DNA of 46,554 bases, from assembly GCA_021787655.1 (NCBI GenBank), contig JAJYLM010000001.1:1-46554 (forward strand), given 5' to 3'. Positions 2,573-18,270 of this stretch are shown here, in pieces. Position 1 is the stretch's first letter. Every line of letters begins with the position of its first letter. This stretch comes from a bacterium. GTDB taxonomy: Bacteria > JAMCPX01. The translations under genes and the position numbers were made by a program. The notes below the pieces were generated by a model, which did not search any database, was not told the DNA's origin, and worked only from the letters and a program-made list of their open reading frames with translations.

Positions 2573-3304
2573 CTACCTTCCTCCGCAGCTTGGACACGAA
2601 GGATTCTTGTGCAGGGGAAAGGTCCTGAACTGCGTCGTCTCACCTTCCCATACCAGGAGCTTGTTCTTCAGCGGCCTGCCAATACCGGTGAGATACTTCA
2701 CTGCCTCAAGTGCCTGCAGGGACCCGATGACGCCGGGGGTTGCTCCGAGCACCGGGAACACCTCCTTGGGCGGGGCTTCTTCGAAGATACATTTCAGACA
2801 CGGTGTTTCCGGTACGTGGATGAACGACAGCCTGCCTTCGATGCCCCATATACTCCCGTAGACCATGGGGATGTGTTTCCTGATCGCACAATCATTGAGG
2901 ATATAGCGCGTCGGAAAGTTGTCCATGCAATCCATGATGATATCCGCGTCTGCCACCAGCTGATCCACGTTGTCTTCGACGATCTTGTCCGTGACCGCAG
3001 TAACCCGGATATTGGGATTCAGTTTTTCGAGCGTCATCTTTCCCGAGATCGCCTTATTGATACCGATCCTGGTGTGGTCGTGCAGTATCTGGCGGTTGAG
3101 ATTCGATAGTTCCGGGGCATCGAAATCGCAGAGGACGATGTTCCCAATGCCTGCGACGGTCAAATAGATCGATGCCGGCGATCCAAGGCCACCTGCTCCT
3201 GCTATGAAGACCTTCATGGCCTTGAGCTTTTCCTGGGTGGCTTCACCCCATCCTTCCATCATCATCTGCCGCGTGTAACGCTTCTTTTCATCTTCTGTCA
3301 GCAT
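2573..3304 (-). CDS. ThiF/MoeB/HesA-family E1-like adenylyltransferase
   Basis: 243 aa. RYTRQ...W...Q.KL....V.I.GAGGLGSP...YL..AGIG.I.L.D.D..E.SNLNRQ is the family signature. Two CxxC pairs (CLKC, CPSC) match the zinc site of MoeB/ThiF. There is no rhodanese domain. Confidence 0.85.
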   Translation of the reverse strand: MLTEDEKKRYTRQMMMEGWGEATQEKLKAMKVFIAGAGGLGSPASIYLTVAGIGNIVLCDFDAPELSNLNRQILHDHTRIGINKAISGKMTLEKLNPNIRVTAVTDKIVEDNVDQLVADADIIMDCMDNFPTRYILNDCAIRKHIPMVYGSIWGIEGRLSFIHVPETPCLKCIFEEAPPKEVFPVLGATPGVIGSLQALEAVKYLTGIGRPLKNKLLVWEGETTQFRTFPLHKNPSCPSCGGR

Positions 3305-3709: not shown

Positions 3710-4987
3710 TCACCATACAAACCTGCACTCGATCCCTGTGTCCACAACACTGCCTCCGAACGAATACCCGTCCTGATACTGCGGAACAGCCTGCATCTTG
3801 CGTACAACACGCGTTTGCAGCAGGGTATCCTGGACATATGCACTTAGACGAATCGGATTGTGCCAGAATCCAGCGCTCTTGAAGGTATAGCTTGCACCGG
3901 CCGACACGAGGTGCCTGTTACTGTCCAGAAAATTGGTCACGCCGGTCTGATCCCGCACCGGGCTCCTTATGAATGCATAGCCTGCAGACACGTCGATATT
4001 GCCCTTGATGGCAGCGCGGATCCCGAACCTTGGAACAACGGTGTCGAACAGGCTTGTTTGTGGAGCGCCGTCGCCCTGCTCGTCAACAAAATCCGACCAG
4101 TGCATATAGGTTGCGTCAAACGAGATCAACAGGACAGGGCTGCTGCTCTGGTAGGATAACCCCACAGCGTACTGTTCCGGGGAGAAAAAGCGTACGTAGT
4201 TGAACGTCTGGGTGTAGATAAGCAGTCCGGATGCAGAGAGGTTGTTGACGCCGTAATCGTTGAATTTCGTTTCAGCCCTGTAGCTAAGCCCTATCTTCAG
4301 TCCATTCTTCAGAACGACCATGATTCCGGCAACCGGCGCCGCCTTGATGAGGATAACGTTGTTCTCGGTGTGCGTGAATGACGATTGGACAAAATTTACG
4401 CTGGTGATCGTTTTGGAAGCCGCATAGATATTTGCCCCCGCACCGATCGAAAGATGACTGGTTATCCTATACGCTGCTGCAGCAAGAAAACCGAATATCT
4501 TGTTCTGGTTATCATAAAAAACAAAATAGCGGTCAACTGACGTATTCCGTTCTTTCCATCCTATGATCGCATCCGTCGGAGCATAGAAGGCAAATCCAAC
4601 ATAGACCCGTCGCGCCGGCAGTAGTCCCGCAAGTGCGGAGGGCCCGAGGGTAAGCCCCAGCTGTTCGAAGGGCAAAGGAGCGATATCCGCAGTGGACCTG
4701 CCGGAACCCGGGTCTTTTATCCATAGCATACTTGCCGCGTACCCCACGCCGAGAGAGAGCGACGTGCCGCGCCGGTCGTGTGCAAACACGGGACGGCGCT
4801 GGAACGCAAGCCCCCCGGGATTATAGTAGCAGGCAGAATAATCGTCGGCAACACCCGTATACGCACCACTCATGGAAAGGGCGTCTGCACCAAGTCCGAA
4901 GTTCGATGCGATGTCAGCGTATGCCGCCGTGCCGGTAACGATGTACATGAGTATACAACAGAATATTCTGAACAGGAGGTGTTTCAT
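3710..4987 (-). CDS. outer-membrane hydrophobic-compound channel, FadL/TodX/OmpP1 family (paralogue 1)
   Basis: I chose the internal ATG at 4987 because it gives the signal peptide MKHLLFRIFCCILMYIVTGTAAYA. It overlaps the upstream stop as ATGA. The N-terminal motif GLGADALSMSGAYTGVADDYSACYYNPGGLAF, the alternating beta-strand pattern and the aromatic C-terminus (...RFVW) fit the family. Confidence 0.7.
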   Translation of the reverse strand: MKHLLFRIFCCILMYIVTGTAAYADIASNFGLGADALSMSGAYTGVADDYSACYYNPGGLAFQRRPVFAHDRRGTSLSLGVGYAASMLWIKDPGSGRSTADIAPLPFEQLGLTLGPSALAGLLPARRVYVGFAFYAPTDAIIGWKERNTSVDRYFVFYDNQNKIFGFLAAAAYRITSHLSIGAGANIYAASKTITSVNFVQSSFTHTENNVILIKAAPVAGIMVVLKNGLKIGLSYRAETKFNDYGVNNLSASGLLIYTQTFNYVRFFSPEQYAVGLSYQSSSPVLLISFDATYMHWSDFVDEQGDGAPQTSLFDTVVPRFGIRAAIKGNIDVSAGYAFIRSPVRDQTGVTNFLDSNRHLVSAGASYTFKSAGFWHNPIRLSAYVQDTLLQTRVVRKMQAVPQYQDGYSFGGSVVDTGIECRFVW

Positions 4988-6204
4988 AACTCGAAGGTCA
5001 GTGATATGCCGGAACTCCACACAAGTCCTCCATTGGTGTAATCCATAAGGGGCTGTGGCTCAATGTTATCCCTGACCACGAGCTGTTGGAGCTGTACAAA
5101 GGCATCCACCCGCGTCCTTATGCCAGACCTGGGCATAATGAACCTGTACCCTGCACCCAGCGAATAAACATGCCGGTCAGCATCGACATAATTCGTTCCG
5201 TCCTGATGCCCGGAAAAAGGAGACGGCACATACGAGTACCCTGCCCTGAATGCCCAGGGGGGTACACCGCGGTAGTCTATGCCGAGTGCGGGCGTCGCTG
5301 TGTTGGCAGTACCCAGGACGTTGTTCTGCGTATCGGTTACACCGCTATCCGCCCAAATATTGTACGTGAGATCCGCGTTGATGCGGATGGCTGAGGAAGG
5401 GGTAATCGAGATACCGATGGCGATCTGGTCCGGTGTTGTCACGACCTTTTCCTCGGATGTTTGCGCAAGTGACGGCGTATTGTTGATGATAAACGTTGTC
5501 AGTCCTGATAGTCCTGAGCTGTTCTTTTCCCGGTAAACGGCACCGATCGACACCCTGTTCCACGGCGTCACGATGAAACCTGCTTCGGGAACGGCAGAAA
5601 TAGACAGATCCCTGTTCTCAAGGAGAACTGCGCTGGGAGGAGAGGTGGTCGTGTTTAAATAGTAGAGCGTGGTCATCTTCCCGGGCATGTATAAGAGAGC
5701 AGAGACACCAATCCGGATAAAAGACGTTATCCGGTAACCAAGCCCGAGCAAGAGCATAAGCTGGGATGCTGTATCTTCGTACAAGACAAATGACTGATCG
5801 CTCACCGGTACGGCATGTTCGCTGTACGCCCTGTCCGGCGGCGTGTACACAAGGAGTCCGAACGATAATCCTGAAAGCTGATTATACGCTGTCATGTGCC
5901 CGACGTTGGTGTTGATGCCAGCCGTGAGCCCGATCATCCTATCGTTATCGATGTATCTCGTAACACCGTCGATCCCTTTGATCCAGACCGCAGGATAAAA
6001 ATAGGTCAGTCCGAGTGAAAACGTCGTCCCCCGTTCGAGGGCAAGTCCTGCCGGGTTGTAGTATGTTGCAGATATGTCAGCCGGATGAGCTACAAAGGCG
6101 TTTCCCATAGCTGGTGCAACGGCCCCGATACCATACATACTTCCGGTGTTGGCGTATGCTCCCGAGCACAGGAGTATTAAAGAACAAATGAGAACGGCAA
6201 ACAA
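4984..6204 (-). CDS. outer-membrane hydrophobic-compound channel, FadL/TodX/OmpP1 family (paralogue 2)
   Basis: 406 aa. GIGAVAPAMGNAFVAHPADISATYYNPAGLAL aligns with the neighbouring paralogue. The signal peptide ends AYA. The first canonical start is TTG at 6204 with no SD; see the finding about a possible upstream ATC start. Confidence 0.7.
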   Translation of the reverse strand: MFAVLICSLILLCSGAYANTGSMYGIGAVAPAMGNAFVAHPADISATYYNPAGLALERGTTFSLGLTYFYPAVWIKGIDGVTRYIDNDRMIGLTAGINTNVGHMTAYNQLSGLSFGLLVYTPPDRAYSEHAVPVSDQSFVLYEDTASQLMLLLGLGYRITSFIRIGVSALLYMPGKMTTLYYLNTTTSPPSAVLLENRDLSISAVPEAGFIVTPWNRVSIGAVYREKNSSGLSGLTTFIINNTPSLAQTSEEKVVTTPDQIAIGISITPSSAIRINADLTYNIWADSGVTDTQNNVLGTANTATPALGIDYRGVPPWAFRAGYSYVPSPFSGHQDGTNYVDADRHVYSLGAGYRFIMPRSGIRTRVDAFVQLQQLVVRDNIEPQPLMDYTNGGLVWSSGISLTFEL

Positions 6205-6251
6205 TGTTTTTTGTTTGATAACAGCTTCCCCTTTGTCTCGGTATGTCGTTG

Positions 6252-6280
6252 GTTGTACTATACCATGGCAGGCGTGTCAA
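6252..6280 (-). promoter_or_regulatory. sigma-70 promoter candidate for the FadL/TodX pair, TTGACA-17-TACAAC
   Basis: On the minus strand, TTGACA is the complement of 6275-6280. A 17-nt spacer follows, then TACAAC (complement of 6252-6257). Confidence 0.4.
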
Positions 6281-6299
6281 TTCAGCAGCAATGAACATT

Positions 6300-6328
6300 T
6301 TGATAATTTTACCATTCGTGCATAGTAT
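6300..6328 (+). promoter_or_regulatory. sigma-70 promoter candidate for the MFS gene, TTGATA-17-TAGTAT
   Basis: TTGATA is at 6300-6305, followed by a 17-nt spacer and TAGTAT at 6323-6328. Only 11 nt separate the -10 from the ATG at 6340, and there is no SD. Confidence 0.35.
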
Positions 6329-6339
6329 TATCCAATTCT

Positions 6340-7575
6340 ATGTTTCGGCGGGAAATAAGAGAACTCCATCCGGCGACAGCAAAACTCCTTGCCGCGCGCA
6401 TGATACGCAGCATCGGACAGGGTATTCTGATTGTAGATTTCACCCTGTACCTCCATGCAATGCATTGGAAGGGCAGCTCGATCGGAATCGTCCTGAGTGT
6501 GGCAGGGCTGTTCGGCGCGCTGCTCAGCCTCATGATAGGTGTCGGCAGCGATCGCCTGAAGAGAAAACCGTTTCTTGTGGTCTATCAGGTCATCCTCATA
6601 CTCAGCGCTCTGACGGCCATGCTCACAGCACAGCCCTGGCTGATTGGCATCAGCGCGGTCCTGGGCGGGTTTGGCCGCGGGGCCAACGGGGCGGCAGGCC
6701 CGTTTTCACCCGCAGAACAGGCATGGCTTGCGGAAAATATACGTCCGTCTAAACGGGGGTTGATCTACAGTATGAATACGGCCCTCGGATTTTTTGGGAC
6801 AGCATTCGGTGCCCTGCTCGCAGTCCTGCCATCCGTATGGACCCGATGGTTCAGCGGTGCATTGACCTACCGTCCGTTGTTTGCCATGGTCGGCATCCTC
6901 GCGCTTGCAGACCTTATCCTGATAGGGGCAACCGAGGAAAATTACCGGGGCGGTCAACAGCGGATTGCAACAGAAACCCACAAGGAACGACGTACCAGGA
7001 CAAAAAAAGAAAATCATGCCCTTTTCAAACTGGTGTTCGTCAACGTATTCAACGGTGCTGCCATCGGCATGACCGGACCGCTCATAGCATATTGGTTCGC
7101 CCTTAAGTTCCATGTGGGACCTGACTTTATAGCTCCGGTCATGGCCCTCACCTTTGTGGTAACCGGCATCGCTTCCCTGATCACGGGTAAAATGACCGAG
7201 CATGTCGGTCTCGTCCAGTCTGTCGTGTTCCAGAGGACCTTCGGCCTTCTCATGCTTTTATTGCTTCCGGTCATTCCGTTCTACTGGCTTGCCTCTCTCG
7301 TGTATCTGCTCAGGTCTGCATTCAACAGGAGTACCGCCGGCGCGCGCCAGGCATTTGCTGTCGGACTGGTGAGAGCCGAGCGCCGGGGACTTGCGACGAG
7401 CCTCAACACGGTCTCCATGCAGTTACCGTGGGCCATCGGCCCGACGATAACGGGCTATTTTTTCGAGGCAGGCCAGCTCGTTGTACCGTTCTACATTGCG
7501 GCATTGCTCCAGGGGGCATACATTATCATGTACAAAAAATTCTTCGGCCGGTATCAAGCTGCGCAGGAGGAATAA
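6340..7575 (+). CDS. MFS transporter
   Basis: 411 aa and about 12 hydrophobic segments. There is a charged central loop (EENYRGGQQRIATETHKERRTRTKKEN) and an MFS-like GSDRLKRKP loop after TM2. Confidence 0.8.
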   Translation: MFRREIRELHPATAKLLAARMIRSIGQGILIVDFTLYLHAMHWKGSSIGIVLSVAGLFGALLSLMIGVGSDRLKRKPFLVVYQVILILSALTAMLTAQPWLIGISAVLGGFGRGANGAAGPFSPAEQAWLAENIRPSKRGLIYSMNTALGFFGTAFGALLAVLPSVWTRWFSGALTYRPLFAMVGILALADLILIGATEENYRGGQQRIATETHKERRTRTKKENHALFKLVFVNVFNGAAIGMTGPLIAYWFALKFHVGPDFIAPVMALTFVVTGIASLITGKMTEHVGLVQSVVFQRTFGLLMLLLLPVIPFYWLASLVYLLRSAFNRSTAGARQAFAVGLVRAERRGLATSLNTVSMQLPWAIGPTITGYFFEAGQLVVPFYIAALLQGAYIIMYKKFFGRYQAAQEE

Positions 7576-7584
7576 CCGAGTGTT

Positions 7585-10500
7585 CTAGAGGGTCCCTTTG
7601 ATGCTTGTATAGAGTGCTCTGGTCTTTTCCGACGGCTCGATACCGAGGGTGCCGGAGAGTGCGGACTGGCACTGTTTATACGTCGAGACAGCTTCGGCAG
7701 TGCGTCCAAGTGATTGATACAGCAGCATCAGCCGCTGGTAAAGAAGTTCTGCTTGATTTTCAATTTCCAACCCTTTCCTGTATATCCTGACTGCCTGCAC
7801 CGTATCTCCGCTCTGTTCATAGTACGATCCGAGTATGTCAATAAAATGCATAAACCGGTCATGGAGTCTATCCCGGAAACTTATTGCCCATGATGGCAGG
7901 AATACCTGCATGAAAAAATCTCCCTTATAGAGATTAAAGATTCGCTTTGCCAGCCCCCGAACCCTGTTGTCCCTGTCAGACAACGTCATTGTTGTATCTC
8001 TTCCTCTGAGAAGTTTCTCCATGCTATCGAACAAGGCCGCGAATGCCTGTACGTCTACCCAGCACAGCGCCGGATTCAGCATCAGCCTGCCTGCCTCCAC
8101 GATCACAGCATCGTTGGAACCGAGCAACTTTCTCAACCTGTGAATGGTTGTATCCAGCGTTTGATGTGCATAATCACCCTCAGCATCAGACCACAGCATT
8201 CCGCTGATATGATCGAGTTCGACTGCCCGCTCGTGATTGACGATGAGAAATTGCAGCAGTTCAATGGGTTTGAGCTGTAACTTCTTTGAAAACTCGGTAG
8301 GCACATCATCATGGAAAATCTTGAAATTCCCAAGCGTGTGTATCCGGAATGTCCATGGCCAGTTTTCGCAGGGATATGGTGGTGTGTCCGGAAAGAGTTC
8401 AAGCTTTTGTATCAAATGCTGCACATAGTTAACTTCAATATTGTTCTCCAATGCCTTGAGACATAAAGACGTCATCTTCTGTCCCCATGCAAAATACACA
8501 TTAACCATGCCATATTTCTTACCCAGCACCAAACATTTCTTCAGCATCTTAAGACCTTTGTTTTCTGTTTCTCTGTCATTCGTATGCTTTTCATCTAAAA
8601 GCCAGTAAGCCTGTATATAATACGATGTAAACTCCAACGACTTACTTTTCATACCTTTGGCAATTTTGAATCCGCAATTGTACTGTTTTTTAGCCTCCTT
8701 ATCATCTCCTTGATCATAGAGTATCTGTGCCAATGCAAGCCTGCATAAGCCCTGCGCAAAAGGAATATGTGCTTTTATAGATAAGGCAAGACTCCTCTCA
8801 ATCTTTTCAAGGGCAAGCGATGTATTCCCCTGCAGATAATCTAACCATCCGGACAATAAACTAAACTGACTTACCTGTAAGGCATTGGATTGATTTAACA
8901 CGGCCTCCATCTGTTGTAAGTATTTTTCAACACCCCTGAGGTCATTGATGGCGAACAAGAGATAAACAGCCTGTGAAATGATCATGTTGTCGAGAAAACG
9001 TACTCCGTACGTATGAGCCATCTCCATGCCTTCGGATACCACGCGCAGACACTCTTCTTTCGATACAATCTGCCGGGCGTAACCGGCATGGTACATCTTT
9101 TGCAGTAATTGGTTTTTTATAGATAAGGATTGCGGTATCGTTTGCATGAATTCAATCAATGTCTGATAGTGGGAAACGTCTCCTATCCACGCATAATAGT
9201 GTACTATGGAGAACGAATAATTTACAAACTGATCAGAATTCTTTATATGTTTTAACAGCCGTAAAGAACGATCCGCCCAGAATTTAAGTTTAGCATGATA
9301 CGGGTTATAATGTGTTAAGGCAAAAACCATCAGACTCATTGTGCGCTCTTCGAGATCCCTTGATGGAAACTCATGATGCACCTGTATTATTTTTATCATT
9401 TCCATTACCCATTTATCAATGAGCGCAAAATTGCCGTACTCATATATGAATGTTTCAATAATCCCGATCCATGACAGATAGACACCCGCGGATAAAAAGT
9501 ATTTTTTACGGTTTGTGCGAGAAAGATGAGGCGTATCATGTAAAAACTTCTTAAATGATCGTTCAAAGTATGTCCGTGCTTCAACCGGATTAAACACAGC
9601 TCTCGCCTCTCCACTCCAATATAATAGCCAGGGATCTTGATGTATCATTACTTCAGGCAGTGACATGATCCACAATTCGAGTATCTTATTTCTGCCTTGT
9701 GTTATCAAAGTATGCGCCTGTTCTTGAATTATCGCCCGGATGTCGTTTACGTTTTCGGATTTCTTTAACAGCTCTACCGCATCTTCAAACCGTCCATTCT
9801 CTTTGAGGATCAACCCTGACTGTTGATAAATATGCTGGAGCTCTGCCTCAGAATATTTCTCCCGTGCTCGGATTACGAGAAACTCTCTGAACAGATCGTG
9901 GTATGTGTAGGTATTATCCTGGCGCCTTACCGTAAAATATTGGTCCTTTACCAGTCCGTTTAAAATCCGTTCCGAGTTTGAATCACCGGTTATTCTCTTT
10001 GCCATCTCCACAGTCATGGAACGGAAAAAACATGTCTTGAGCAAAAAATCCTGTATATCAGGTCCGAGACGCTGAAATATCTCTGACGAAAAATAATCGA
10101 ATATGGCTTGATAGTCCTTCGATCCACTGTGTGCCTCTGTTTTTAATCCCTGGCTATCTTTTGTCAGCATCAGCATAATCCCTGCCGCCCAGCCGTCTGT
10201 CCACTGGTAGAGCCTCTCCATCAGCTGGCGATCCTGGACGTTTCCTGAACGCATGCGTATAAGTTCCCGTGTTTCCTCAGGAGTAAACTTGATCGAATCG
10301 CGATCAATAACTTCCATGAGACTGTTTGCCCTCAGGCGCGTATACACCGGATGAGGTTCTGAGCGGCTAATAAGAATAACAGTGCCCCGTTCAGGAACCC
10401 TCATTAATGCCTCACTCATTATCGTATGAAAGAGAGGACTTTGGTTAATCTCATGGTAATTATCGAACACAAGAACGAACCCTCTTGGCAGCATGGCATA

Positions 10501-10851
10501 TAGATTTTCAAAGTATCGCTGGGTAAAAACAGATATATTCGGAAGATATTCCGGAGTCAAAGCAGGCAGTTTTAAGTTCTTCGCCCCGTCGTTCCCTTTT
10601 ACCAGATATTTCAGATAATGGAAAAAGGTTGCCGGGTCAGAGTCGGCACTATCGATATGATACCATGCATGGGGGATCTTGTTTGACGCTATGTAGCTTG
10701 CTACCAGGGTTGTCTTGCCCGCGCCCGGCAGTCCGGTAATCCAGATACTCTTTTTTTTGCGAGCATGATCCAGCGTTCGAAATAACCGTTGTCTCAAAAC
10801 CACATTGTCCGTGTCAGGACGCTGTAATTTTGCCAAAACATTGTTCTGCAC
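7585..10851 (-). CDS. STAND (MalT-like) ATPase - helical-repeat sensor - C-terminal winged-helix + BTAD (SARP-type) transcriptional regulator, copy 1
   Basis: 1088 aa with a GTG start. Walker A is GLPGAGKTT (10708-10734). VLVFDNYHE and TDGWAAGI resemble the MalT NOD. The C-terminal 261 aa (7588-8370) carry the OmpR-type wHTH motif ...RIHTLGNF...LW...YA..LDTTIHRLRKLLG, followed by a BTAD-like region ...YYEQSGD...A..IYRKGLEIENQAELLYQRLMLLY. Confidence 0.8.
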   Translation of the reverse strand: MQNNVLAKLQRPDTDNVVLRQRLFRTLDHARKKKSIWITGLPGAGKTTLVASYIASNKIPHAWYHIDSADSDPATFFHYLKYLVKGNDGAKNLKLPALTPEYLPNISVFTQRYFENLYAMLPRGFVLVFDNYHEINQSPLFHTIMSEALMRVPERGTVILISRSEPHPVYTRLRANSLMEVIDRDSIKFTPEETRELIRMRSGNVQDRQLMERLYQWTDGWAAGIMLMLTKDSQGLKTEAHSGSKDYQAIFDYFSSEIFQRLGPDIQDFLLKTCFFRSMTVEMAKRITGDSNSERILNGLVKDQYFTVRRQDNTYTYHDLFREFLVIRAREKYSEAELQHIYQQSGLILKENGRFEDAVELLKKSENVNDIRAIIQEQAHTLITQGRNKILELWIMSLPEVMIHQDPWLLYWSGEARAVFNPVEARTYFERSFKKFLHDTPHLSRTNRKKYFLSAGVYLSWIGIIETFIYEYGNFALIDKWVMEMIKIIQVHHEFPSRDLEERTMSLMVFALTHYNPYHAKLKFWADRSLRLLKHIKNSDQFVNYSFSIVHYYAWIGDVSHYQTLIEFMQTIPQSLSIKNQLLQKMYHAGYARQIVSKEECLRVVSEGMEMAHTYGVRFLDNMIISQAVYLLFAINDLRGVEKYLQQMEAVLNQSNALQVSQFSLLSGWLDYLQGNTSLALEKIERSLALSIKAHIPFAQGLCRLALAQILYDQGDDKEAKKQYNCGFKIAKGMKSKSLEFTSYYIQAYWLLDEKHTNDRETENKGLKMLKKCLVLGKKYGMVNVYFAWGQKMTSLCLKALENNIEVNYVQHLIQKLELFPDTPPYPCENWPWTFRIHTLGNFKIFHDDVPTEFSKKLQLKPIELLQFLIVNHERAVELDHISGMLWSDAEGDYAHQTLDTTIHRLRKLLGSNDAVIVEAGRLMLNPALCWVDVQAFAALFDSMEKLLRGRDTTMTLSDRDNRVRGLAKRIFNLYKGDFFMQVFLPSWAISFRDRLHDRFMHFIDILGSYYEQSGDTVQAVRIYRKGLEIENQAELLYQRLMLLYQSLGRTAEAVSTYKQCQSALSGTLGIEPSEKTRALYTSIKGTL

Positions 10852-11009
10852 TGATTATCCCCCCGCTGTATTTTTTTACCTTTCGCAGCAAGTTTCGTCA
10901 ATACAATAATTGATCATTATTTGTGTTTATCGCATCTGTAAGCACACAACTGCTATACGGTACATCATAGACGATGCTTTTTATCAATACGGAGAGAAAA
11001 GGAGATTTT

Positions 11010-11264
11010 ATGAAACGGATTTTTGTGTTTTTCGTGCTCGCCGCTGCATTAGCAGGTTGCGGAACTGTCGTTCCCTATTACGGCATCAACATGCAGCAAA
11101 AGCTGCTGAACAACGGTGTCGGGACAACCTGCAATTTTGAGCCGTCGCAGGCGTTTGAGTCATCCAAGAGGATCATTTTGCTCAACGCAACCATAACTAC
11201 AACGACACTCTTACCTAATGGAGACAAATTCACGACAACTTGCATTTTGGTACCCCGTTATTAA
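11010..11264 (+). CDS. small lipoprotein, unknown function
   Basis: The internal ATG at 11010 is preceded by AAAGGAG. MKRIFVFFVLAAALAGCGT carries the lipobox LAGC. The mature peptide is about 65 aa with two further Cys residues. I recognise no family. Confidence 0.6.
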   Translation: MKRIFVFFVLAAALAGCGTVVPYYGINMQQKLLNNGVGTTCNFEPSQAFESSKRIILLNATITTTTLLPNGDKFTTTCILVPRY

Positions 11265-11267
11265 CCT

Positions 11268-14200
11268 TCAAACATAACGGCGTCGGTCTCCTGACGTTAT
11301 GGCACGGTGATAAATTTCTTTGGTTTTGCCGGAAGGTTCTACGCCGATCGTACGGGACAGAGCAGATGTACAGCGCCTGTAGACGGCAGCGGCCGCTGCG
11401 GTACGACCTTTTGATAAGTATATCACCATCAGGCGCTGGTAGAAAAGTTCTGCACTGTTATCTATGACCAGTCCCTTGTTGTAGGTGCCAAGAGCACGGT
11501 CCGCATCTCCTGTTTTCTCGTAATAGAGCCCCAGTATCTCAATAAAATGCAGAACATGGTCGTGCAGCTTTTGACGGAACCCCAGAGCCCATGAAGGAAG
11601 AGGTCCCTGCGCAAAAAAATCGCCCCGGTAGAGTGCAAAAACAAGACGTGAAATATCCTCAATTTCCTTCTTTTGTGAGGACGATGTCCGGATTCCCTGG
11701 TCCGCAAGAAGCATTGTACCGCGGTCCATCAAAAACTCGCCTGCAACGACATCTATCCAGCATTTCTTTAAATTAAGCATAAGCCTTCCGCCCTGCGTTA
11801 TCAGCGAATCAGGTGATCCAAGAAGCTGGCGCAGTCTGTGAATAGTAATATCCAAAACCTGATGCGCATAATCACCCTGGGTTTCCGGCCACAGAACCCC
11901 GCTGATATAATCAAAGTCGACAGCCCCGTCGTGATGGACAATGAGCAGGTGCAGTAATTCAGCAGGTTTACTGTTGGACTTCCTCGAAAGCACGACCGGC
12001 ACATTGTTCTTCAATAGAGTGAAATTACCGAGCGTATAAATTCGCACAACCCATGGCCATGATTCGCAGGCAAAAGGAGGGGTTTCCGGAAAGAGGTCCC
12101 GCCGTTTGATCAAGCCTGCGACATACTCCGGGGCAATCCCAGCGTCTAACGCCCTCACACACAATTCTGCCATTACCGAGGGGAGCCAGCCATGGAAATT
12201 GATATAGTTCCTCCTCCGTCCTATTGACATGGCGCTGCGCAGGTAGCGCTGGCCCGTGCGTTCTTTATCATGGTCAAATGCAATATGTGCCTTGATCAGG
12301 AGAATTTTAAACTCGAGCAAATCGCTCCTCTTGATTATTGTGTGAGCTTTTGCGAGATACTGCAGAGCTTGTTTATCCTGCTTCAGCCCATGTAAGACAT
12401 CTGCCATCTGGATATAACTGAGAACAATCCTTGGAACAGATCCCGACTCGAGAGAAAGCCTCGTGGCCGTTTCCTGGCTTATCAGTGCTGAAGAAAAATC
12501 TTTATTGAGCATGGCTTTCCACGCCAGGGCTATATAATACCATGATGCATCGAACGCACCTGCAGAGATAATATTTTTTGAAACATCTTTTAAAAGTTCT
12601 TCCGCTAAAAGATTATCTCCCGCCATAAGCGCAAGGAGGGCCGTGGTACCATAGAGCGTCCGGTCCAGTACGTGCACGCCGGTCATCCGGCTCAACTCCC
12701 GTGCTTCATGAAATACCTTCGCATACCGCTGAGTATCAACGACATAAAGGCAGTACAATACTTCCAGGTCTTTAAAGGTGATATTCACCAGGGGTGAAAC
12801 GTCCTGGGAGTGATCCAGATACCGGACCTGCTCAATTATTCTACCGGCCTTTTCCACCTCCCCGACGAACAGATAATACAGCGCAATGAATGTACTGATC
12901 TGTATTCTGACGTTAACGTCCTCTGTTTGTTCGAGCAGGGTAGTCAGACGTCTGAGCCATTTTTTTATCCCGGGATTAAACGTCTGGCGGAATACGAGGG
13001 CAACAAACATGTTGGTTGAAACTACCGTATCTATTTCCGGGGAGGGAAACACGGCTTTCGTGCCGGAGAACCGGTTCATATTGCGTATCCACCGATCATA
13101 GAGTCTATAGTCACCAAAACGGTATGTTATGGAGTAGATCACGCCAGTCCACGCAATGGCCATGCCTTTCTTATTTCCGCTTTTTCTGAACTGCTGGAAG
13201 GCATTCTCAAAAATTGGATAACTCTCCACGGGGTTAAACGGCAGTTTGCATCTGCCGAGCCAACAATACAACCATGGATTTTTTTTAACTCTTTGTTCTG
13301 GTAATCTGTTTAACCACGCCTCCAGCGTATGGTATCTACCCTGAGAAACGAGCACGGGGGCATACTGCAGTATGATTTCAATTGCTTTGTCCCACTGACC
13401 GGCTTTTAAAAACAACACGGCTGCATCTTCGCTGAGCCCTTCGTCGAGCAAAATCTCTGCAGCGCTGAGTTGATTGTGCTTCGCTGTTTCGGCTATCCAG
13501 ACATCGTTTGTTTTTGAACGGAGAAATTCCCGGAACAGATCGTGGTAGGTAAAGATATCGTTTGCACGCTTTATGGTAAAATAATCGGTATTCACAAGAC
13601 GTTCCAGAAAAGGTTTGACCATTTTATCACCGGTTATTTTTTCCGCCATTGCAGGGCTTATAACAGGGAAAAGACTTGTTTTCAGAAGAAACTCCTGCTC
13701 TTCGGGCTGCATCTTCTCAAATATTTCTGAGCTGAAATAATCAAATATCCCCTGAAAATCCCCACTGCTTTCCGGAAGCTCCATATCTCCGTGTGATTGT
13801 TGCTGCTGCAGCATCAGGACAATTCCCGCTGCCCACCCATTTGTAGAATTGTATACATGTTCGATTTTCTCGCGATCGTATCGATGTCCGCATCGGAGCT
13901 GTACCAGTTGTACGGTTTCCTCGGGTGTAAATCTGATGTGATCGTTTCCTATGAGTTGTATCAATCCATCCTTTATCAAATGCTGAATATTTTCCGGCGG
14001 GTGTGATCTGCTTATCACAATGACATTCCCCTGTTCTGGTACCGTCGTCAAGGCCTCATGCATGATACGGTGAAAAAGAGGATTGCTATCAACCTCATGA
14101 TAATTATCGAATACAAAGATAAACCCCTTGGGTAGCAAATTGAATAATTTTTCAAAATATCGGCGCGCGTATATCTCGATGTTTGCATAATACTCCGGAC

Positions 14201-14537
14201 TCAACAGTGGAAGCAGCGCTTTTTTTGCAGACGAAGCAGCCTTTCGACCGTTAACACGAGATGCCCCGCCCTGGTCAACCGCCGCCTCGAGGGTTCTCAT
14301 ATAATAAAAGAATGTTGCAGGATCCTTATCCGAGCTGTCGATCTGATACCATCGGCTGCGGGATTTTATTCTGCTTACATAGCTTGCAATGAGTGTTGTC
14401 TTTCCCGATCCCGGCAAGCCGGTGACCCAGAGTGCCCGCTTCTGTCTTGCCTCATCGAGCACGTGAAACAGCCTGCTCCTGAAAACAACGTTGTCGATCT
14501 CGGGTCTCTGTATCTTTGCGACAACTCCTGATCGCAC
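11268..14537 (-). CDS. STAND (MalT-like) ATPase - helical-repeat sensor - C-terminal winged-helix + BTAD (SARP-type) transcriptional regulator, copy 2
   Basis: 1089 aa. The GTG start is preceded by AGGAGG. It is collinear with copy 1 (GLPGSGKTT, IFVFDNYHE, TNGWAAGI). The C-terminal 266 aa (11271-12068) read RIYTLGNF...LW...YAHQVLDITIHRLRQLLG...LYYEKTGD...YNKGLVIDNSAELFYQRLMVIY. Confidence 0.8.
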   Translation of the reverse strand: MRSGVVAKIQRPEIDNVVFRSRLFHVLDEARQKRALWVTGLPGSGKTTLIASYVSRIKSRSRWYQIDSSDKDPATFFYYMRTLEAAVDQGGASRVNGRKAASSAKKALLPLLSPEYYANIEIYARRYFEKLFNLLPKGFIFVFDNYHEVDSNPLFHRIMHEALTTVPEQGNVIVISRSHPPENIQHLIKDGLIQLIGNDHIRFTPEETVQLVQLRCGHRYDREKIEHVYNSTNGWAAGIVLMLQQQQSHGDMELPESSGDFQGIFDYFSSEIFEKMQPEEQEFLLKTSLFPVISPAMAEKITGDKMVKPFLERLVNTDYFTIKRANDIFTYHDLFREFLRSKTNDVWIAETAKHNQLSAAEILLDEGLSEDAAVLFLKAGQWDKAIEIILQYAPVLVSQGRYHTLEAWLNRLPEQRVKKNPWLYCWLGRCKLPFNPVESYPIFENAFQQFRKSGNKKGMAIAWTGVIYSITYRFGDYRLYDRWIRNMNRFSGTKAVFPSPEIDTVVSTNMFVALVFRQTFNPGIKKWLRRLTTLLEQTEDVNVRIQISTFIALYYLFVGEVEKAGRIIEQVRYLDHSQDVSPLVNITFKDLEVLYCLYVVDTQRYAKVFHEARELSRMTGVHVLDRTLYGTTALLALMAGDNLLAEELLKDVSKNIISAGAFDASWYYIALAWKAMLNKDFSSALISQETATRLSLESGSVPRIVLSYIQMADVLHGLKQDKQALQYLAKAHTIIKRSDLLEFKILLIKAHIAFDHDKERTGQRYLRSAMSIGRRRNYINFHGWLPSVMAELCVRALDAGIAPEYVAGLIKRRDLFPETPPFACESWPWVVRIYTLGNFTLLKNNVPVVLSRKSNSKPAELLHLLIVHHDGAVDFDYISGVLWPETQGDYAHQVLDITIHRLRQLLGSPDSLITQGGRLMLNLKKCWIDVVAGEFLMDRGTMLLADQGIRTSSSQKKEIEDISRLVFALYRGDFFAQGPLPSWALGFRQKLHDHVLHFIEILGLYYEKTGDADRALGTYNKGLVIDNSAELFYQRLMVIYLSKGRTAAAAAVYRRCTSALSRTIGVEPSGKTKEIYHRAITSGDRRRYV

Positions 14538-14641: not shown

Positions 14642-15532
14642 TTATCCGGCCGCCGGACTATTCAGGTCTTTTTTGTAAACGCGGCGAAAAATACTTACCC
14701 GCGGACGGCCGGAAAGATCGTTGATGGTTTTCACATAATACAGCGATGTTTGTTTCGCGGACATGCCCAGAGACTCCATAAATCTCTGATGCGTGTCATC
14801 ATGCTCTATGGCCAGTATTCCGTCATCGTTAAGGTAGTTACCCGCTTGCCGAACAATTCTTGTAATGACTTCTGTTCCATTCTTTCCTCCATCCAGCGCT
14901 TTTACCGGCTCGCACCTTACTTCTTTTTGTAAATGCGGCATCCGCGTGTTCGGGATGTAGGGGGGATTAGAAACGATAAGATCAAATTTTGCACCAACTG
15001 GCAGCGGTGAAAACAAGTCACCGTGATAAAATGAAGTTCGTGCGGCGAGGCCGAGCACTGCGGCATTCTCGCGGGCAAGGTTCACCGCTCTGAGCGAACG
15101 GTCGCTTAAACTTATTCGGGTATGCAGGTCAAGACGTGCTATGCTTAAGCCAATAACGCCGCTTCCACAGCAGAGATCAAGGATGGATGTGTTTTTGCGT
15201 GCCGCCGTATATTGCAGGCAAATTTCAGCAAGTAGTTCTGTTTCAGGCCGCGGGATCAGCACGCCGGGCCGTATTCTGAATTTGATCCCCATGAATTCTA
15301 CAGAACCGGTGAGGTATTGGAGAGGATAGTGCTCACCGCGCTTTTTGACGGCCCTTGTTATCTTCCGGAACGCGCCGGCAGGAACGACACTATCATTGTG
15401 GATGAGCAAATGCTCTCTCGGTATTCCTGTTACCCCTGCAATGATGCTATTGATTTCCGTCAACGTAATCCGGAGATGATTGCTCCGTACATATGACCTT
15501 ATCCAGGTATGAAGATCTCTCAGCAGCGGCAT
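14642..15532 (-). CDS. prmC: release-factor glutamine N5-methyltransferase
   Basis: 296 aa with the HemK/PrmC fold. It has the SAM motif ILDLCCGSG and the catalytic NPPY (VSNPPYIP). It lies 3 nt downstream of prfA. Confidence 0.9.
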   Translation of the reverse strand: MPLLRDLHTWIRSYVRSNHLRITLTEINSIIAGVTGIPREHLLIHNDSVVPAGAFRKITRAVKKRGEHYPLQYLTGSVEFMGIKFRIRPGVLIPRPETELLAEICLQYTAARKNTSILDLCCGSGVIGLSIARLDLHTRISLSDRSLRAVNLARENAAVLGLAARTSFYHGDLFSPLPVGAKFDLIVSNPPYIPNTRMPHLQKEVRCEPVKALDGGKNGTEVITRIVRQAGNYLNDDGILAIEHDDTHQRFMESLGMSAKQTSLYYVKTINDLSGRPRVSIFRRVYKKDLNSPAAG

Positions 15533-15535
15533 GCT

Positions 15536-16609
15536 TTATTGCGAGGAGATTACATGCGCGAGTTCGTTTGCCCTGTAGAACGCTACCAGTGCATCTATAA
15601 ATTCGTCGATATCTCCGGAAAGGATAGTGTTGAGCGAATACACAGTAAAGTTGATCCTATGGTCCGTGACCCTGTTTTGCGGGAAATTGTAGGTTCTGAT
15701 CTTTTCGCTGCGATCCCCCGTACCAACCTGGTTTCGTCTGTCCTGTGCACGTTCGGATATTTGTTTTTCCGTGTTCATGGTCAGTAATCGGGTTGTGAGA
15801 ATTTTCATTGCTTTAATTCTGTTCTGGTACTGGGAGCGTTCATCCTGGCAAACGACGACCATGCCTGTAGGAATATGCGTTATACGTATTGCTGTCTCGA
15901 GCTTATTGACATTCTGACCGCCATGTCCTCCGGCTCTGAATGTATCTATCTTCAGTTCATCCGGTCTGACATTCACTTCGACGTCATCCGCCTCGGGCAA
16001 TATTGCGACCGTCGCAGTCGATGTATGGATCCTCCCGCTCGCCTCTGTTTTTGGAACCCTTTGTACCCTGTGAACGCCGCTCTCAAATTTTAACCTGCTG
16101 TAGACCTTATCACCCTCGATCAGAACAACGACCTCTTTATATCCGCCGATGCCTGTCGTATTTTCACTCAAGATCTCGGCTCGCCACTTCCTCTTTTCTG
16201 CATACTTCAGATACATCCTCAGCAAATCACCGGCAAACAAGGCTGACTCTTCTCCGCCGGCACCGGCACGTATTTCGAGGAGCACGTTTTTCGAATCCAG
16301 CGGATCCTTGGGCAGGAGCAGTTCCTTGAGCTTGTTTTCTGAAGACTCCTTCTGCCTCTCCAACATCTGCAGTTCTTCTTTGGCAAGAAGTTTTATATCG
16401 TCGTCTCCGGCTGTGAGCAGTTGTTTTGCCGATTCTATATCATTCACGAAACCCTTGTACGCCTGATAGGTTAATGCAAGGGGTTCAATCTCGTTTTTTT
16501 CTTTGATATACCTGGTGTATGTCTTTGGATCATTAAAAACTTCAGGTTCTGTCAACAAAGAGTTGAGTTGATTGTAACGCTGTAATACTTTTTCAATATT
16601 TTCAAACAT
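15536..16609 (-). CDS. prfA: peptide chain release factor 1
   Basis: 357 aa with the GGQ motif (RAGGHGGQNVNK). The P-x-T type anticodon loop (VPKTEASGRIHTS) fits RF1 rather than the SPF of RF2. It sits in the conserved prfA-prmC pair. Confidence 0.95.
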   Translation of the reverse strand: MFENIEKVLQRYNQLNSLLTEPEVFNDPKTYTRYIKEKNEIEPLALTYQAYKGFVNDIESAKQLLTAGDDDIKLLAKEELQMLERQKESSENKLKELLLPKDPLDSKNVLLEIRAGAGGEESALFAGDLLRMYLKYAEKRKWRAEILSENTTGIGGYKEVVVLIEGDKVYSRLKFESGVHRVQRVPKTEASGRIHTSTATVAILPEADDVEVNVRPDELKIDTFRAGGHGGQNVNKLETAIRITHIPTGMVVVCQDERSQYQNRIKAMKILTTRLLTMNTEKQISERAQDRRNQVGTGDRSEKIRTYNFPQNRVTDHRINFTVYSLNTILSGDIDEFIDALVAFYRANELAHVISSQ

Positions 16610-16767
16610 CCTGCAGCTCTCGGTAAAAAATATTTACTGGTATCGGTACAGAAAAACACCTTCTCTTTGATAATGAAACACACACCTGATCGTGCATGCT
16701 TGAGCAGAGCATCAGCTGTTCCGGACGGCTTTTCCGCAGTCCCGCTGATTCTTCCTGAACGATACGG

Positions 16768-16995
16768 TTAGTTGGCTTTTGACGCTTTCTTGCTGGTCTT
16801 TTTGCTGTACTTTTTCTGAAATTTCTCAACCATACCTGCCGAGTCAACGAATTTCTGCTTACCGGTAAAGAACGGGTGGCAATTCGAACAAATTTCCACG
16901 GTATAGTCGCCTTTTGTCGATCTCGTTTCAATAATGCTGCCGCACGCACATTTTATCGTAGCTTTCACATAGTTAGGATGAATACCTTTTTTCAT
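16768..16995 (-). CDS. rpmE: 50S ribosomal protein L31 (zinc-binding type)
   Basis: 75 aa. MKKGIHPNY...CACG...[13 protein letters not shown] is the canonical L31 sequence with Cys pairs. Confidence 0.95.
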
Positions 16996-17010
16996 GTTTC
17001 CTCCGGTCTC

Positions 17011-18270
17011 TTAATCAAGATCGACTTTATTCATCGAGTCAAGAAAATCTTTATTTGTTTTTGTTTTCGACATTTTATCTATCAGAAATTCCATGGCCTC
17101 AACAACTCCCATGGGCTGAAGAACCTTTCTCAGTACCCATAACTTGTTGATGGCGCTCTTTTCTATCAGCAGTTCTTCTTTTCTCGTACCTGACTTGCTG
17201 ATATCCATCGCAGGGAACACCCTCTTATCGGCAAGCCTCCTGTCCAATACGATTTCCATATTACCGGTTCCTTTGAACTCTTCAAAGATAACTTCGTCCA
17301 TACGGCTGCCGGTATCGATAAGGGCCGTTGCCATAATGGTGAGACTGCCCCCTTCTTCAATATTTCGGGCCGCGCCAAAAAACCGCTTCGGTCTCTGGAG
17401 TGCATTCGCGTCAACACCGCCTGAAAGCACCTTGCCGCTCGCGGGAACAATCGTGTTATGTGCCCGTGCAAGCCTCGTGATACTGTCGAGCAGAATAACA
17501 ACATCGCGACCGTGCTCGACAAGCCTCTTTGCCTTTTCGAGAACCATGTCCGCCACTTGAACGTGCCTCTGTGCCGGTTCGTCGAATGTTGAGCTGATCA
17601 CTTCCCCTTTCACCGACCTCTGCATGTCCGTGACCTCTTCAGGCCGTTCATCTATCAGCAGAACAATGAGGTGAACCTCAGGATGATTTTTGATAATTGC
17701 ATTCGCTATGTGCTGCAGCAAAATGGTTTTTCCGGTCCGCGGCTGTGCAACGATGAGCCCCCGCTGGCCTTTACCAATAGGAGCAAGCAGGTCTATGATC
17801 CGCGTCGAAAGCTCCGAATGGTTGTATTCAAGCTTAAATTTTTCCTCGGGATACAGAGGCGTGAGGTTGTCAAAAAGTATCTTATTCCTGGCCACCTCGG
17901 GATCATCGTTATTGATAGTCTCGACCTTGACCAGAGCAAAGTACTTCTCTCCCTCTTTCGGCTGTCGTATCTGACCAGTGACCACATCACCTGTCCGTAT
18001 ACCGAATTTTCGGATTTGAGAGGGTGAAACATAGATATCATCAGGACCAGGCAGGTAATTGTAATCAGACGACCTCAGAAAGCCATAGCCGTCGGGAAGT
18101 ATTTCCAGAACGCCTTCACCGTAGATAATGCCGTTGTTCGCACTCTGTGCCTTCAGTATGCCGAATATCAGCTCCTGCCTTCGCAGGCTCATTGCATCTT
18201 CTACGTTCAATTCTTTGGCTATATTGGCAAGCTCTGCTATTGATTTTGTTTTGAGTTCTTTTAGATTCAA
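17011..18270 (-). CDS. rho: transcription termination factor Rho
   Basis: 419 aa. N-terminal MNLKELK...ELA..A..L, the RNA-binding domain [14 protein letters not shown], Walker A PRTGKT and [10 protein letters not shown] are all present. Confidence 0.97.

Follow-up and report, generated by a model that had tools for sequence, protein, structure and literature searches.

Two adjacent paralogous regulators combining a MalT-type STAND chassis with a C-terminal SARP module, and a candidate direct-repeat operator

A stretch of bacterial DNA of 46,554 nucleotides (GTDB lineage Bacteria; JAMCPX01; assembly GCA_021787655.1, contig JAJYLM010000001.1, positions 1 to 46,554, forward strand), referred to here as the window, carries two neighbouring regulator genes, copy 1 and copy 2, whose products seem to join the ATPase of one class of transcription regulators to the DNA-binding output of another. 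The locus raises the question to which family such proteins belong, how they might work and on which DNA they might act. We consider it likely that both genes are members of a very large STAND family in which the LuxR-type end of a MalT chassis is replaced by a SARP module, that they work by a mechanism resembling those of MalT and AfsR, and that a candidate operator can be proposed for them. Loci and proteins compared with the window are given L and P numbers.

A first-pass annotation of the window, made from the letters alone, had described both open reading frames (ORFs) as collinear minus-strand genes with GTG starts. This was borne out, as the two proteins aligned from end to end with 434 identities in 1,097 columns (40%, E = 0), and both GTG codons are preceded by a Shine-Dalgarno-like sequence (GGGGGGA in copy 1, GGAGG in copy 2). 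All motifs quoted at that time (GLPGAGKTT / GLPGSGKTT, VFDNYHE, T(D/N)GWAAGI, RI(H/Y)TLGNF, YAHQ.LD.TIHRLR.LLG and LY.GDFF) were found in the translations.

The N-terminal part proved to be a nucleotide-binding oligomerisation domain (NOD) of MalT type, as first supposed, and not of NB-ARC type. The NCBIfam MalT model NF003420 matched residues 7-409 (E 4e-55), and the MalT structure 8bob in the Protein Data Bank (PDB) matched residues 7-406 of copy 1 (E 1.5e-30); no NB-ARC match was obtained with Pfam in either protein. Scores against NF003420 were 187.3 and 185.2 bits, compared with an equivalog cutoff of 537 for MalT itself. Residue conservation was read from an alignment of 109 family members. 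Walker A (G43-x-G45-K46-T47) and Walker B (D130-N131, copy 1 numbering) fall in columns that are invariant or nearly so; GxGKT and D130 are invariant. The N-loop residues K8, P12, R20, R22, L23 and F24, which align with the N-loop of MalT, are at least 90% conserved, as is H318 of the MHD-like motif. In MalT the N-loop is autoinhibitory and locks the closed NOD (PMC10427625). At the second Walker B position both copies, and at least 90% of the family, have Asn (about nucleotides 10459-10464 in copy 1), whereas MalT has Asp; this residue may make ATP hydrolysis slow and the ON state long-lived.

The middle region had been read as about 600 residues of helical-repeat sensor. The repeat-type sensor was confirmed, but the length was not, since arm and sensor together measure about 480 residues. 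The likeness of the sensor to that of MalT is distant (TPR_MalT, E 2e-3). A Pfam check that had been proposed returned weak TPR_MalT and TPR_12 matches followed by Trans_reg_C and BTAD, and no match to a GerE/LuxR helix-turn-helix (HTH) at E ≤ 1 in either protein. The AlphaFold2 (AF2) model of full-length copy 1, built from the 109-sequence alignment, had a pLDDT of 87.4. Its best PDB matches with Foldseek were the NOD of MalT (8e-16) and PH0952 (6mfv, 2e-14, 761 columns), then the SARP module of AfsR and EmbR. The proteins thus possess the parts of a STAND regulator: a P-loop nucleotide-binding domain (NBD), a helical domain (HD) and a winged-helix domain (WHD), a repeat-type sensor and a separate effector. 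Two traits distinguish MalT from other STAND proteins, the autoinhibitory N-loop and the effector at the C-terminus (PMC10427625); the family has kept both, the effector again lying at the C-terminus.

At this end, where MalT has its LuxR-type HTH, the family has a SARP module (residues 835-1088 of 1088 in copy 1), consisting of an OmpR-type winged helix-turn-helix (wHTH) and a contiguous BTAD. The first-pass annotation had proposed this module, and Pfam, profile comparison and structure prediction all identified it as a true one. Pfam BTAD matched with E-values of 1.6e-14 (copy 1) and 1.9e-13 (copy 2), and Trans_reg_C with 1e-6 in copy 1, above the cutoff, and 7.6e-4 in copy 2, below it. A family profile of the last ~270 residues aligned collinearly with the whole AfsR SARP module (8hvr_I; 22-268 versus 46-284, E 2e-14) and also matched EmbR (2fez, E 3e-10). 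For the AF2 model of the last 274 residues (pLDDT 87.9, pTM 0.82) the six best matches with Foldseek were all to AfsR and EmbR (E 7e-10 to 1e-8, TM 0.66-0.73, ~260 columns), and the remaining matches were local and limited to TPR (TMq ≤ 0.36). The NCBIfam AfsR model NF053617 scored 32.6 and 22.8 bits over the SARP part alone, compared with a cutoff of 1430. The N-terminal placement that is usual in the SARP family was not found. The recognition helix of copy 1 comprises residues 892-910, GDYAHQTLDTTIHRLRKLLG.

Comparison of the two copies domain by domain gave identities of 57% for the NBD, 49% for the WHD, 34% for the arm and 24% for the sensor, but 57% for the wHTH and 84% for the recognition helix. 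The sensor is the divergent module between the copies and the recognition helix the conserved one. All residues that are invariant in the family are intact in both copies, and so are Walker A, the Walker B Asp, the sensor Arg, the MHD-like His and the Arg residues of the recognition helix. The nearest relative found for copy 2 was P0019, with 58% identity. Features of the locus are collected in Table 1.

Table 1. Features of the two regulator genes and their surroundings, in window coordinates; residue numbers are those of copy 1.
Feature	Position	Strand	Basis
Copy 1 regulator (= P0001), 1088 aa, MalT chassis with SARP output	7585..10851	-	ORF, Pfam, NCBIfam, PDB, AF2
Copy 2 regulator (= P0026), 1089 aa, architecture as copy 1	11268..14537	-	ORF, Pfam, NCBIfam, pairwise alignment
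Copy 1 N-loop (1-24) and NBD (25-165)	10357..10851	-	MalT alignment; conserved columns in family
Copy 1 HD (166-235) and WHD (248-332), including GWAAG and Y317-H318-D319 (MHD-like)	9856..10356	-	PF25873 WHD_MalT; MalT FCYHPLF alignment
Copy 1 arm (335-440) and all-helical sensor solenoid (455-816)	8404..9849	-	AF2 secondary structure; weak TPR_MalT, TPR_12
Copy 1 linker (817-834), family signature ENWPW	8350..8403	-	W831 invariant, P832 and W833 conserved in at least 90%; no paralogue checked has lost it
Copy 1 OmpR/PhoB-type winged helix (835-932)	8056..8349	-	Trans_reg_C; profile versus AfsR/EmbR; AF2 and Foldseek
Copy 1 BTAD (933-1088)	7588..8055	-	Pfam BTAD 1.6e-14; structural matches AfsR, EmbR
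Sigma-70-like promoter of copy 1, TTGACG-17 nt-TAAAAA	10873..10901	-	Consensus match; kept in L001
Sigma-70-like promoter of copy 2, TTGACT-17 nt-TACAAA	14576..14604	-	Consensus match
Single candidate operator unit CTGTAAGCACA (10936-10946), then -10-like TATACG (10954-10959)	10936..10959	+	7 nt between; orthologous to L001 two-unit box
Small conserved lipoprotein gene, 84 aa, MKRIFVFFVLAAALAGC...	11010..11264	+	ORF; Pfam LPAM_1; lipobox LAGC
MFS transporter, divergent	6340-7575
Two overlapping FadL/TodX-type outer-membrane genes	3710-5020, 4984-6204
ThiF	2573-3304
Fusion of OYE and pyridine-nucleotide-disulphide reductase	481-2499

The size of the family was estimated in two ways. In a word-indexed search 1,700 of 8,000 scored candidates matched at E ≤ 1e-10, and nearly all of the top 120 relatives were full-length (1,040-1,130 residues) with both BTAD and WHD_MalT. 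An exhaustive hidden Markov model search with the C-terminal profile, run against 1.84 billion cluster representatives, returned, at E ≤ 1e-30, 5,459 representatives of clusters formed at 50% identity. Almost all of the best 150 have a SARP module that ends within a few residues of the C-terminus, and shorter family entries look like fragments from contig ends. Among the GTDB species genomes, full-length relatives were found in Deltaproteobacteria/Desulfobacterota, Deferrisomatales, Nitrospira, Ca. Sulfobium, Burkholderiales, Gammaproteobacteria, Spirochaetia and Anaerolineales/Chloroflexota; they represent five phyla or more. The clusters found with the C-terminal profile are spread over Desulfobacterota, Nitrospirota, Pseudomonadota, Spirochaetota and Chloroflexota. 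Where a match was confined to the N-terminus, it was to a MalT/LAL protein from Actinomycetota or Bacillus. Deltaproteobacteria is the label carried by the nearest named relatives.

Annotation pipelines give these proteins generic or contradictory labels, such as 'BTAD domain-containing putative transcriptional regulator', 'DNA-binding SARP family transcriptional activator' and 'LuxR family maltose regulon positive regulatory protein'. For the order MalT chassis followed by SARP module we found no PDB entry and no NCBIfam equivalog, and in the full-text literature neither a paper on the architecture nor a characterised member, older STAND surveys in subscription journals being outside our reach. 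Papers on SARPs describe N-terminal modules only and call SARPs Streptomyces- or actinomycete-specific (PMC11301090; bioRxiv 10.64898/2026.09.02.748808). The earlier statement that this order cannot be assigned to a characterised family was upheld, the NCBIfam scores lying below their cutoffs. The order is not rare among sequences, as there are thousands of clusters with generic automatic annotation. The architecture is widespread and catalogued by pipelines, yet without a characterised member as far as we could establish.

On which DNA might such proteins act? SARPs bind direct repeats spaced 11 or 22 bp apart, of which the 3' repeat lies 8 bp away from the -10 element (PMC10936776), and intergenic DNA near family genes was scanned using this published rule. 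The scan yielded a candidate operator of two to five CTGTAAG(C)NNN units repeated every 11 bp, with 7-8 bp between its end and a following -10 hexamer. A common repeat occurs in unrelated loci (GCTTACAGATGGCTTACA in L001, ACTTACAGATCGCTTACA in L044). In 820 kb of family loci, phased CTTACAG pairs with at most two mismatches occurred nine times at a spacing of 11 bp, compared with 0-4 times at most other spacings; they adjoin family genes in L001 (twice), L022 (Burkholderiales), L044 and L045 (Geobacteraceae). A spacing of 21 bp gave seven pairs, which is unexplained and may reflect units two helical turns apart.

The exact 18-mer CTTACAGATSGCTTACAG was then used for a metagenome scan and found at 68 loci (59 non-redundant). 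A family gene lies within a few kb in 12 of the 68, for which the rough expectation is about 0.001-0.01 loci; this figure is an estimated background, derived from the frequency of the family (~3e-6 of protein clusters), and not a matched scan. In the CTGTAAG orientation the box points at the downstream gene. It stands 57-68 bp upstream of the regulator's own start in L086 and L022 (68 bp in L022), and 35-90 bp past the regulator stop, in the same direction, in L055, L061, L088, L096 and L045; in others it lies farther off. Additional in-phase units were about 15-fold enriched, giving arrays of three to five. The pattern TANNNT began exactly 11 nt past the last heptamer in 6 of 59 loci, compared with 0.93 per other offset and none in reverse orientation, and the distance between heptamer and -10-like element is identical in L001, L044 and the window. 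Where the genes downstream of boxes are clearer, their products belong to the envelope or are secreted: a beta-propeller lipoprotein, a porin, a FecR-domain protein and lipoproteins. Regulators linked to boxes have the helix core TT(L/I)HRLR(R/K)LL in common. The operator is put forward as a statistically supported, post hoc prediction. A known RNA family at the box arrays was considered and dropped, as Rfam gave no match, and a literature search for the motif string returned primer sequences only. In L055 (~2300-2380), L061 (~660-735) and L073, about 70 nt downstream of the box are conserved (…cccggatgcgcttctgcc…tgggaa.ggaatccc…); in L055 no convincing ORF follows for ~600 bp, and a small RNA or a long leader is possible there.

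In the window itself, the lipoprotein gene between the two regulators is the only gene preceded by a candidate unit, which ends 64 bp upstream of its start codon. This single unit is not statistically significant alone. Its counterpart in L001 reads ATGTAAGCCAT-CTGTAAGCACA and is followed by TATACT at equal spacing. L001 also has a 3.2-kb segment with genes for an NHL beta-propeller protein and an HTH_11 protein, flanked by two boxes (6599-6625 and 9789-9813), which is missing from the window (10909-10946 at the corresponding place); this is consistent with loss of the segment in the window's lineage by recombination between boxes, with one unit left at the junction. As only a half-site is left, most targets should lie elsewhere in the genome. 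A generic repeat search of three intergenic regions detected short two-copy repeats at chance level only.

By analogy with MalT and AfsR, the resting protein would be a closed monomer with bound ADP, which the N-loop and contacts of the sensor and arm keep locked. A signal, either a small molecule or a protein, would bind in the groove of sensor and arm, ADP would be exchanged for ATP and the NOD would oligomerise. The oligomer could then line up a number of SARP modules along a single face of the DNA, on direct repeats one helical turn apart, where the modules would sit over the -35 region and recruit RNA polymerase via their BTADs. Since the sensors have strongly diverged and the recognition helices are almost equal, the two paralogues most likely respond to different signals and act on the same kind of site. 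More tentatively, and as something we regard as possible rather than probable, the phased CTGTAAG(C)NNN arrays may be the common operator of a pan-bacterial STAND-SARP family, so that paralogues with interchangeable, recombining sensors and one recognition helix would converge on the same promoters, mostly those of lipoproteins, porins and secreted beta-propeller proteins.

Several points weigh against these proposals. The window has no intact box: its best 11-bp pair in a position weight matrix scan was no better than pairs at control spacings. No family gene was seen in the stretch examined at 56 of the 68 box loci, and some of these could be matches by chance. Among box-linked regulators the recognition helix is variable in its N-terminal half, although the box is identical. 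Where boxes lie just past the regulator stop (L055, L088) the downstream target was not identified, and the box search was post hoc, the motif having been found before it was tested. The gene neighbourhoods of distant members have no common partner or theme. Concerning the mechanism, the Asn in Walker B means that the ATPase cycle may differ from that of MalT, and deletion of GSU1771 of Geobacter sulfurreducens, a receiver-SARP protein and the one studied SARP-type protein from outside the actinobacteria that we found, up-regulates many genes (PMC10599522), so that repression is possible too. We infer from homology that the proteins are ligand-gated oligomerising switches, as the first-pass annotation had suggested, and this inferred part takes in the binding of ATP, ligand and DNA as well as oligomerisation and the sign of regulation.

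Among the alternatives, the one that survives best accepts the regulators but denies that the CTGTAAG repeats are their operator; these would be the site of another factor or a lineage-restricted repeat travelling along. Such a reading would account for the window without an intact box, for the many box loci without a family gene and for the variable half of the helix, and it can also point to the seven pairs at 21 bp. Yet the one gene that recurs beside the box, in unrelated contexts and phyla, is the family gene, and period, arrays and distance to the -10 element match the SARP promoter rule (PMC10936776). A mobile repeat is excluded because the flanks differ between instances, and the arrays lack an Rfam match. 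We judge this alternative to be the less probable one, though with a chance large enough to be taken seriously.

Clearly less probable still, in our estimate, is the view that the proteins are mainly repressors or ATP-locked scaffolds that do not cycle, rather than MalT-like activators. The D-N in place of D-D/E at Walker B, found in at least 90% of family members, the precedent of GSU1771 and the good, constitutive-looking sigma-70 promoters of both window genes would suit it. The BTAD, however, is intact and AfsR-like in structure, and in AfsR this domain activates through contacts with sigma region 4, the beta flap and the alpha-CTD (PMC11301090, PMC10936776). A box over the -35 region, 7-8 bp away from the -10 element and lacking a -35 hexamer, is the layout of an activator-dependent promoter. 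A slow ATPase would be compatible with activation, because it is ATP binding and not hydrolysis that activates MalT and AfsR (PMC10936776). Activation by a MalT/AfsR-like switch remains our preferred reading.

The tandem arrangement itself could be explained by an obligate hetero-oligomer of both paralogues, that is, one switch with two sensors, to which we assign a similarly low probability. Tandem pairs were found in five loci (window, L001, L043, L044 and L050), and near-identical recognition helices, an NBD identity of 57% and different sensors would agree with such a complex. On the other hand, the chromosomal slot that holds the window pair holds a single copy in L051 and L052, and the pair in L001 consists of two copy-1-like genes, so the composition is not fixed. 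The first-pass annotation was right in placing the genes side by side, but the 416-bp gap between them is not empty; it contains the lipoprotein gene on the opposite strand. With this gene between them and a putative promoter of its own for each, the two regulators form separate transcription units, which also speaks against an obligate complex. Sequence TTGTATTGAC, related to the copy 1 promoter, also occurs in L044, and ATTGACTTT of the copy 2 promoter is kept upstream of P0004 (L001) and P0006 (L043).

The history of copy 1 likewise points to ordinary turnover of tandem duplicates rather than to a fixed pair. Its NOD is nearest to P0002 (NBD 88%, WHD 94%) and its sensor to P0004 (78%, compared with 55% for P0002), and about 400 bp of the window (9771-10170) are 97-100% identical to L001, compared with 75.8% for the whole gene. 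That NOD and sensor of copy 1 have different nearest relatives points to a mosaic gene, in which sensor and NOD modules were probably reassorted by recombination, or gene conversion, among tandem paralogues.

How far do these proteins resemble characterised regulators? With MalT of E. coli and the MalT/LAL regulators they have the N-loop, NBD-HD-WHD, arm and helical sensor in common, collinear with MalT residues ~5-411, and the effector follows the sensor in both; a cycle of ADP-bound closed form and ATP-bound oligomer would be expected by analogy. They differ from MalT in an output of ~255 residues (SARP) instead of ~65 (LuxR/GerE HTH), in Walker B (D-N versus D-D), in a sensor that is only distantly MalT-like and in the expected operator, 11-bp direct repeats instead of MalT boxes. 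With AfsR and other large SARPs, and with EmbR of Mycobacterium, the wHTH and BTAD are homologous over their whole length. AfsR is also a STAND protein in which the NOD/TPR part gates the SARP module by ATP binding (PMC10936776), and the candidate operator follows the repeat/-10 rule of SARPs. In AfsR, however, the SARP module comes first and not last, and the NOD is of NB-ARC and not of MalT clade; the family occurs in Gram-negative and other non-actinobacterial phyla, and its candidate arrays reach four to five units, compared with two 11-bp repeats in the afs box.

Two further systems were compared by their descriptions. SARP-LAL hybrids (e.g., of PimR type) also join SARP and LAL-type ATPase parts (bioRxiv 10.64898/2026.09.02.748808), but their SARP is N-terminal and they are cluster-situated regulators of actinomycetes. 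GSU1771 resembles the family in having a SARP-type output C-terminal to the input domain in a non-actinobacterial protein, but its input is a response-regulator receiver, whereas the family has a STAND NTPase with sensor; GSU1771 regulates envelope and extracellular-electron-transfer genes (PMC10599522). PH0952 of Pyrococcus horikoshii, a STAND protein with a TPR sensor and the second-best structural match, corresponds over NOD, arm and sensor and also has an N-terminal loop (PMC10427625); it is archaeal, and no SARP-like part aligned.

That the two proteins are merely odd-looking members of a characterised family, MalT/LAL or AfsR-type large SARP, is very improbable. The strong MalT homology of the NOD could suggest it, as could the 'LuxR family maltose regulon positive regulatory protein' label that JGI pipelines give to many relatives, but the domain tests refuted it, with no GerE/LuxR HTH, a C-terminal SARP, a MalT-type NOD and NCBIfam scores of 187 versus 537 (MalT) and 33 versus 1430 (AfsR). 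Least probable of all is an antiviral, Avs-like STAND defence protein, which would share the STAND NTPase and TPR-like sensor and has Avs4 (8dgf_B, E 4e-6) among the distant Foldseek matches, but is contradicted by marginal local PADLOC matches only (E ≥ 1e-4, ≤ 19 bits), by an effector that is a DNA-binding and transcription-activation module instead of a toxic domain, and by a core-chromosome position in a housekeeping slot (rho-rpmE-prfA-prmC) conserved in five genomes; with no meaningful PADLOC match, the defence reading was rejected.

The literature treats SARPs as actinomycete regulators of antibiotic synthesis whose DNA-binding module is N-terminal, and MalT as the odd STAND protein whose LuxR-type output is C-terminal; the family unites the two. 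With more than 5,000 clusters at 50% identity in at least five phyla it may rank, among the one-component signal-sensing transcription factors of environmental bacteria, with the larger groups that are still unstudied. As a case in which nature has exchanged the effector and kept the STAND chassis, it lets the coupling of NOD oligomerisation to different DNA-binding outputs be examined, and its modular, recombining sensors suggest a toolbox of ligand-gated switches. The candidate operator, if true, would permit regulon prediction in uncultured organisms; if common to the family, it would make these proteins an integration system of many sensors on one operator, and SARP-type activation would be no speciality of actinomycetes. 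The practical value hinges on confirmation of DNA binding and on at least one ligand being found.

The surroundings of the pair are core chromosome, with glyQS, ppdK, rho, prfA, prmC and dTDP-sugar genes. In five genomes (window, L001, L043, L051 and L052) the slot downstream of rho-rpmE-prfA-prmC (window 14642-18270) is occupied by a single family gene or by two, and a second recurrent slot lies beside a hemA-type operon. After the regulators in the rho slot the content varies: MFS/FadL, patatin/FadL, Pkinase/FHA or a transposase. The block of two FadL genes, ThiF and an OYE/FadH-like gene follows in three of the five (window, L001 and L052); the divergent MFS gene also belongs to the block that is kept beside family regulators in L001 and L052. 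This link is limited to close relatives and may be plain synteny. The lipoprotein is 86% identical to its counterpart at the same place in L001 (6276-6530), where the regulators are less conserved (71%).

The intergenic region between the MFS and FadL genes was also inspected. A regulatory footprint was rejected there, since identity between the window and L001 (89.6%) is not above that of the flanking FadL genes (89.6-90.0%). Upstream of the first FadL gene, TTGAC and TATRGT occur 12 nt apart in three genomes (window 6205-6339; L001 14437-14526; L052 ~12390-12425). Their interpretation as a SARP-like half-site, based on the three-way footprint with L052, was dropped in favour of a TTGACA-17-TACAAY promoter of the ordinary kind, which is the probable reading. 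An inverted repeat, TTTGATAAT/ATTATCCAA (6299-6335), overlaps the putative MFS promoter.

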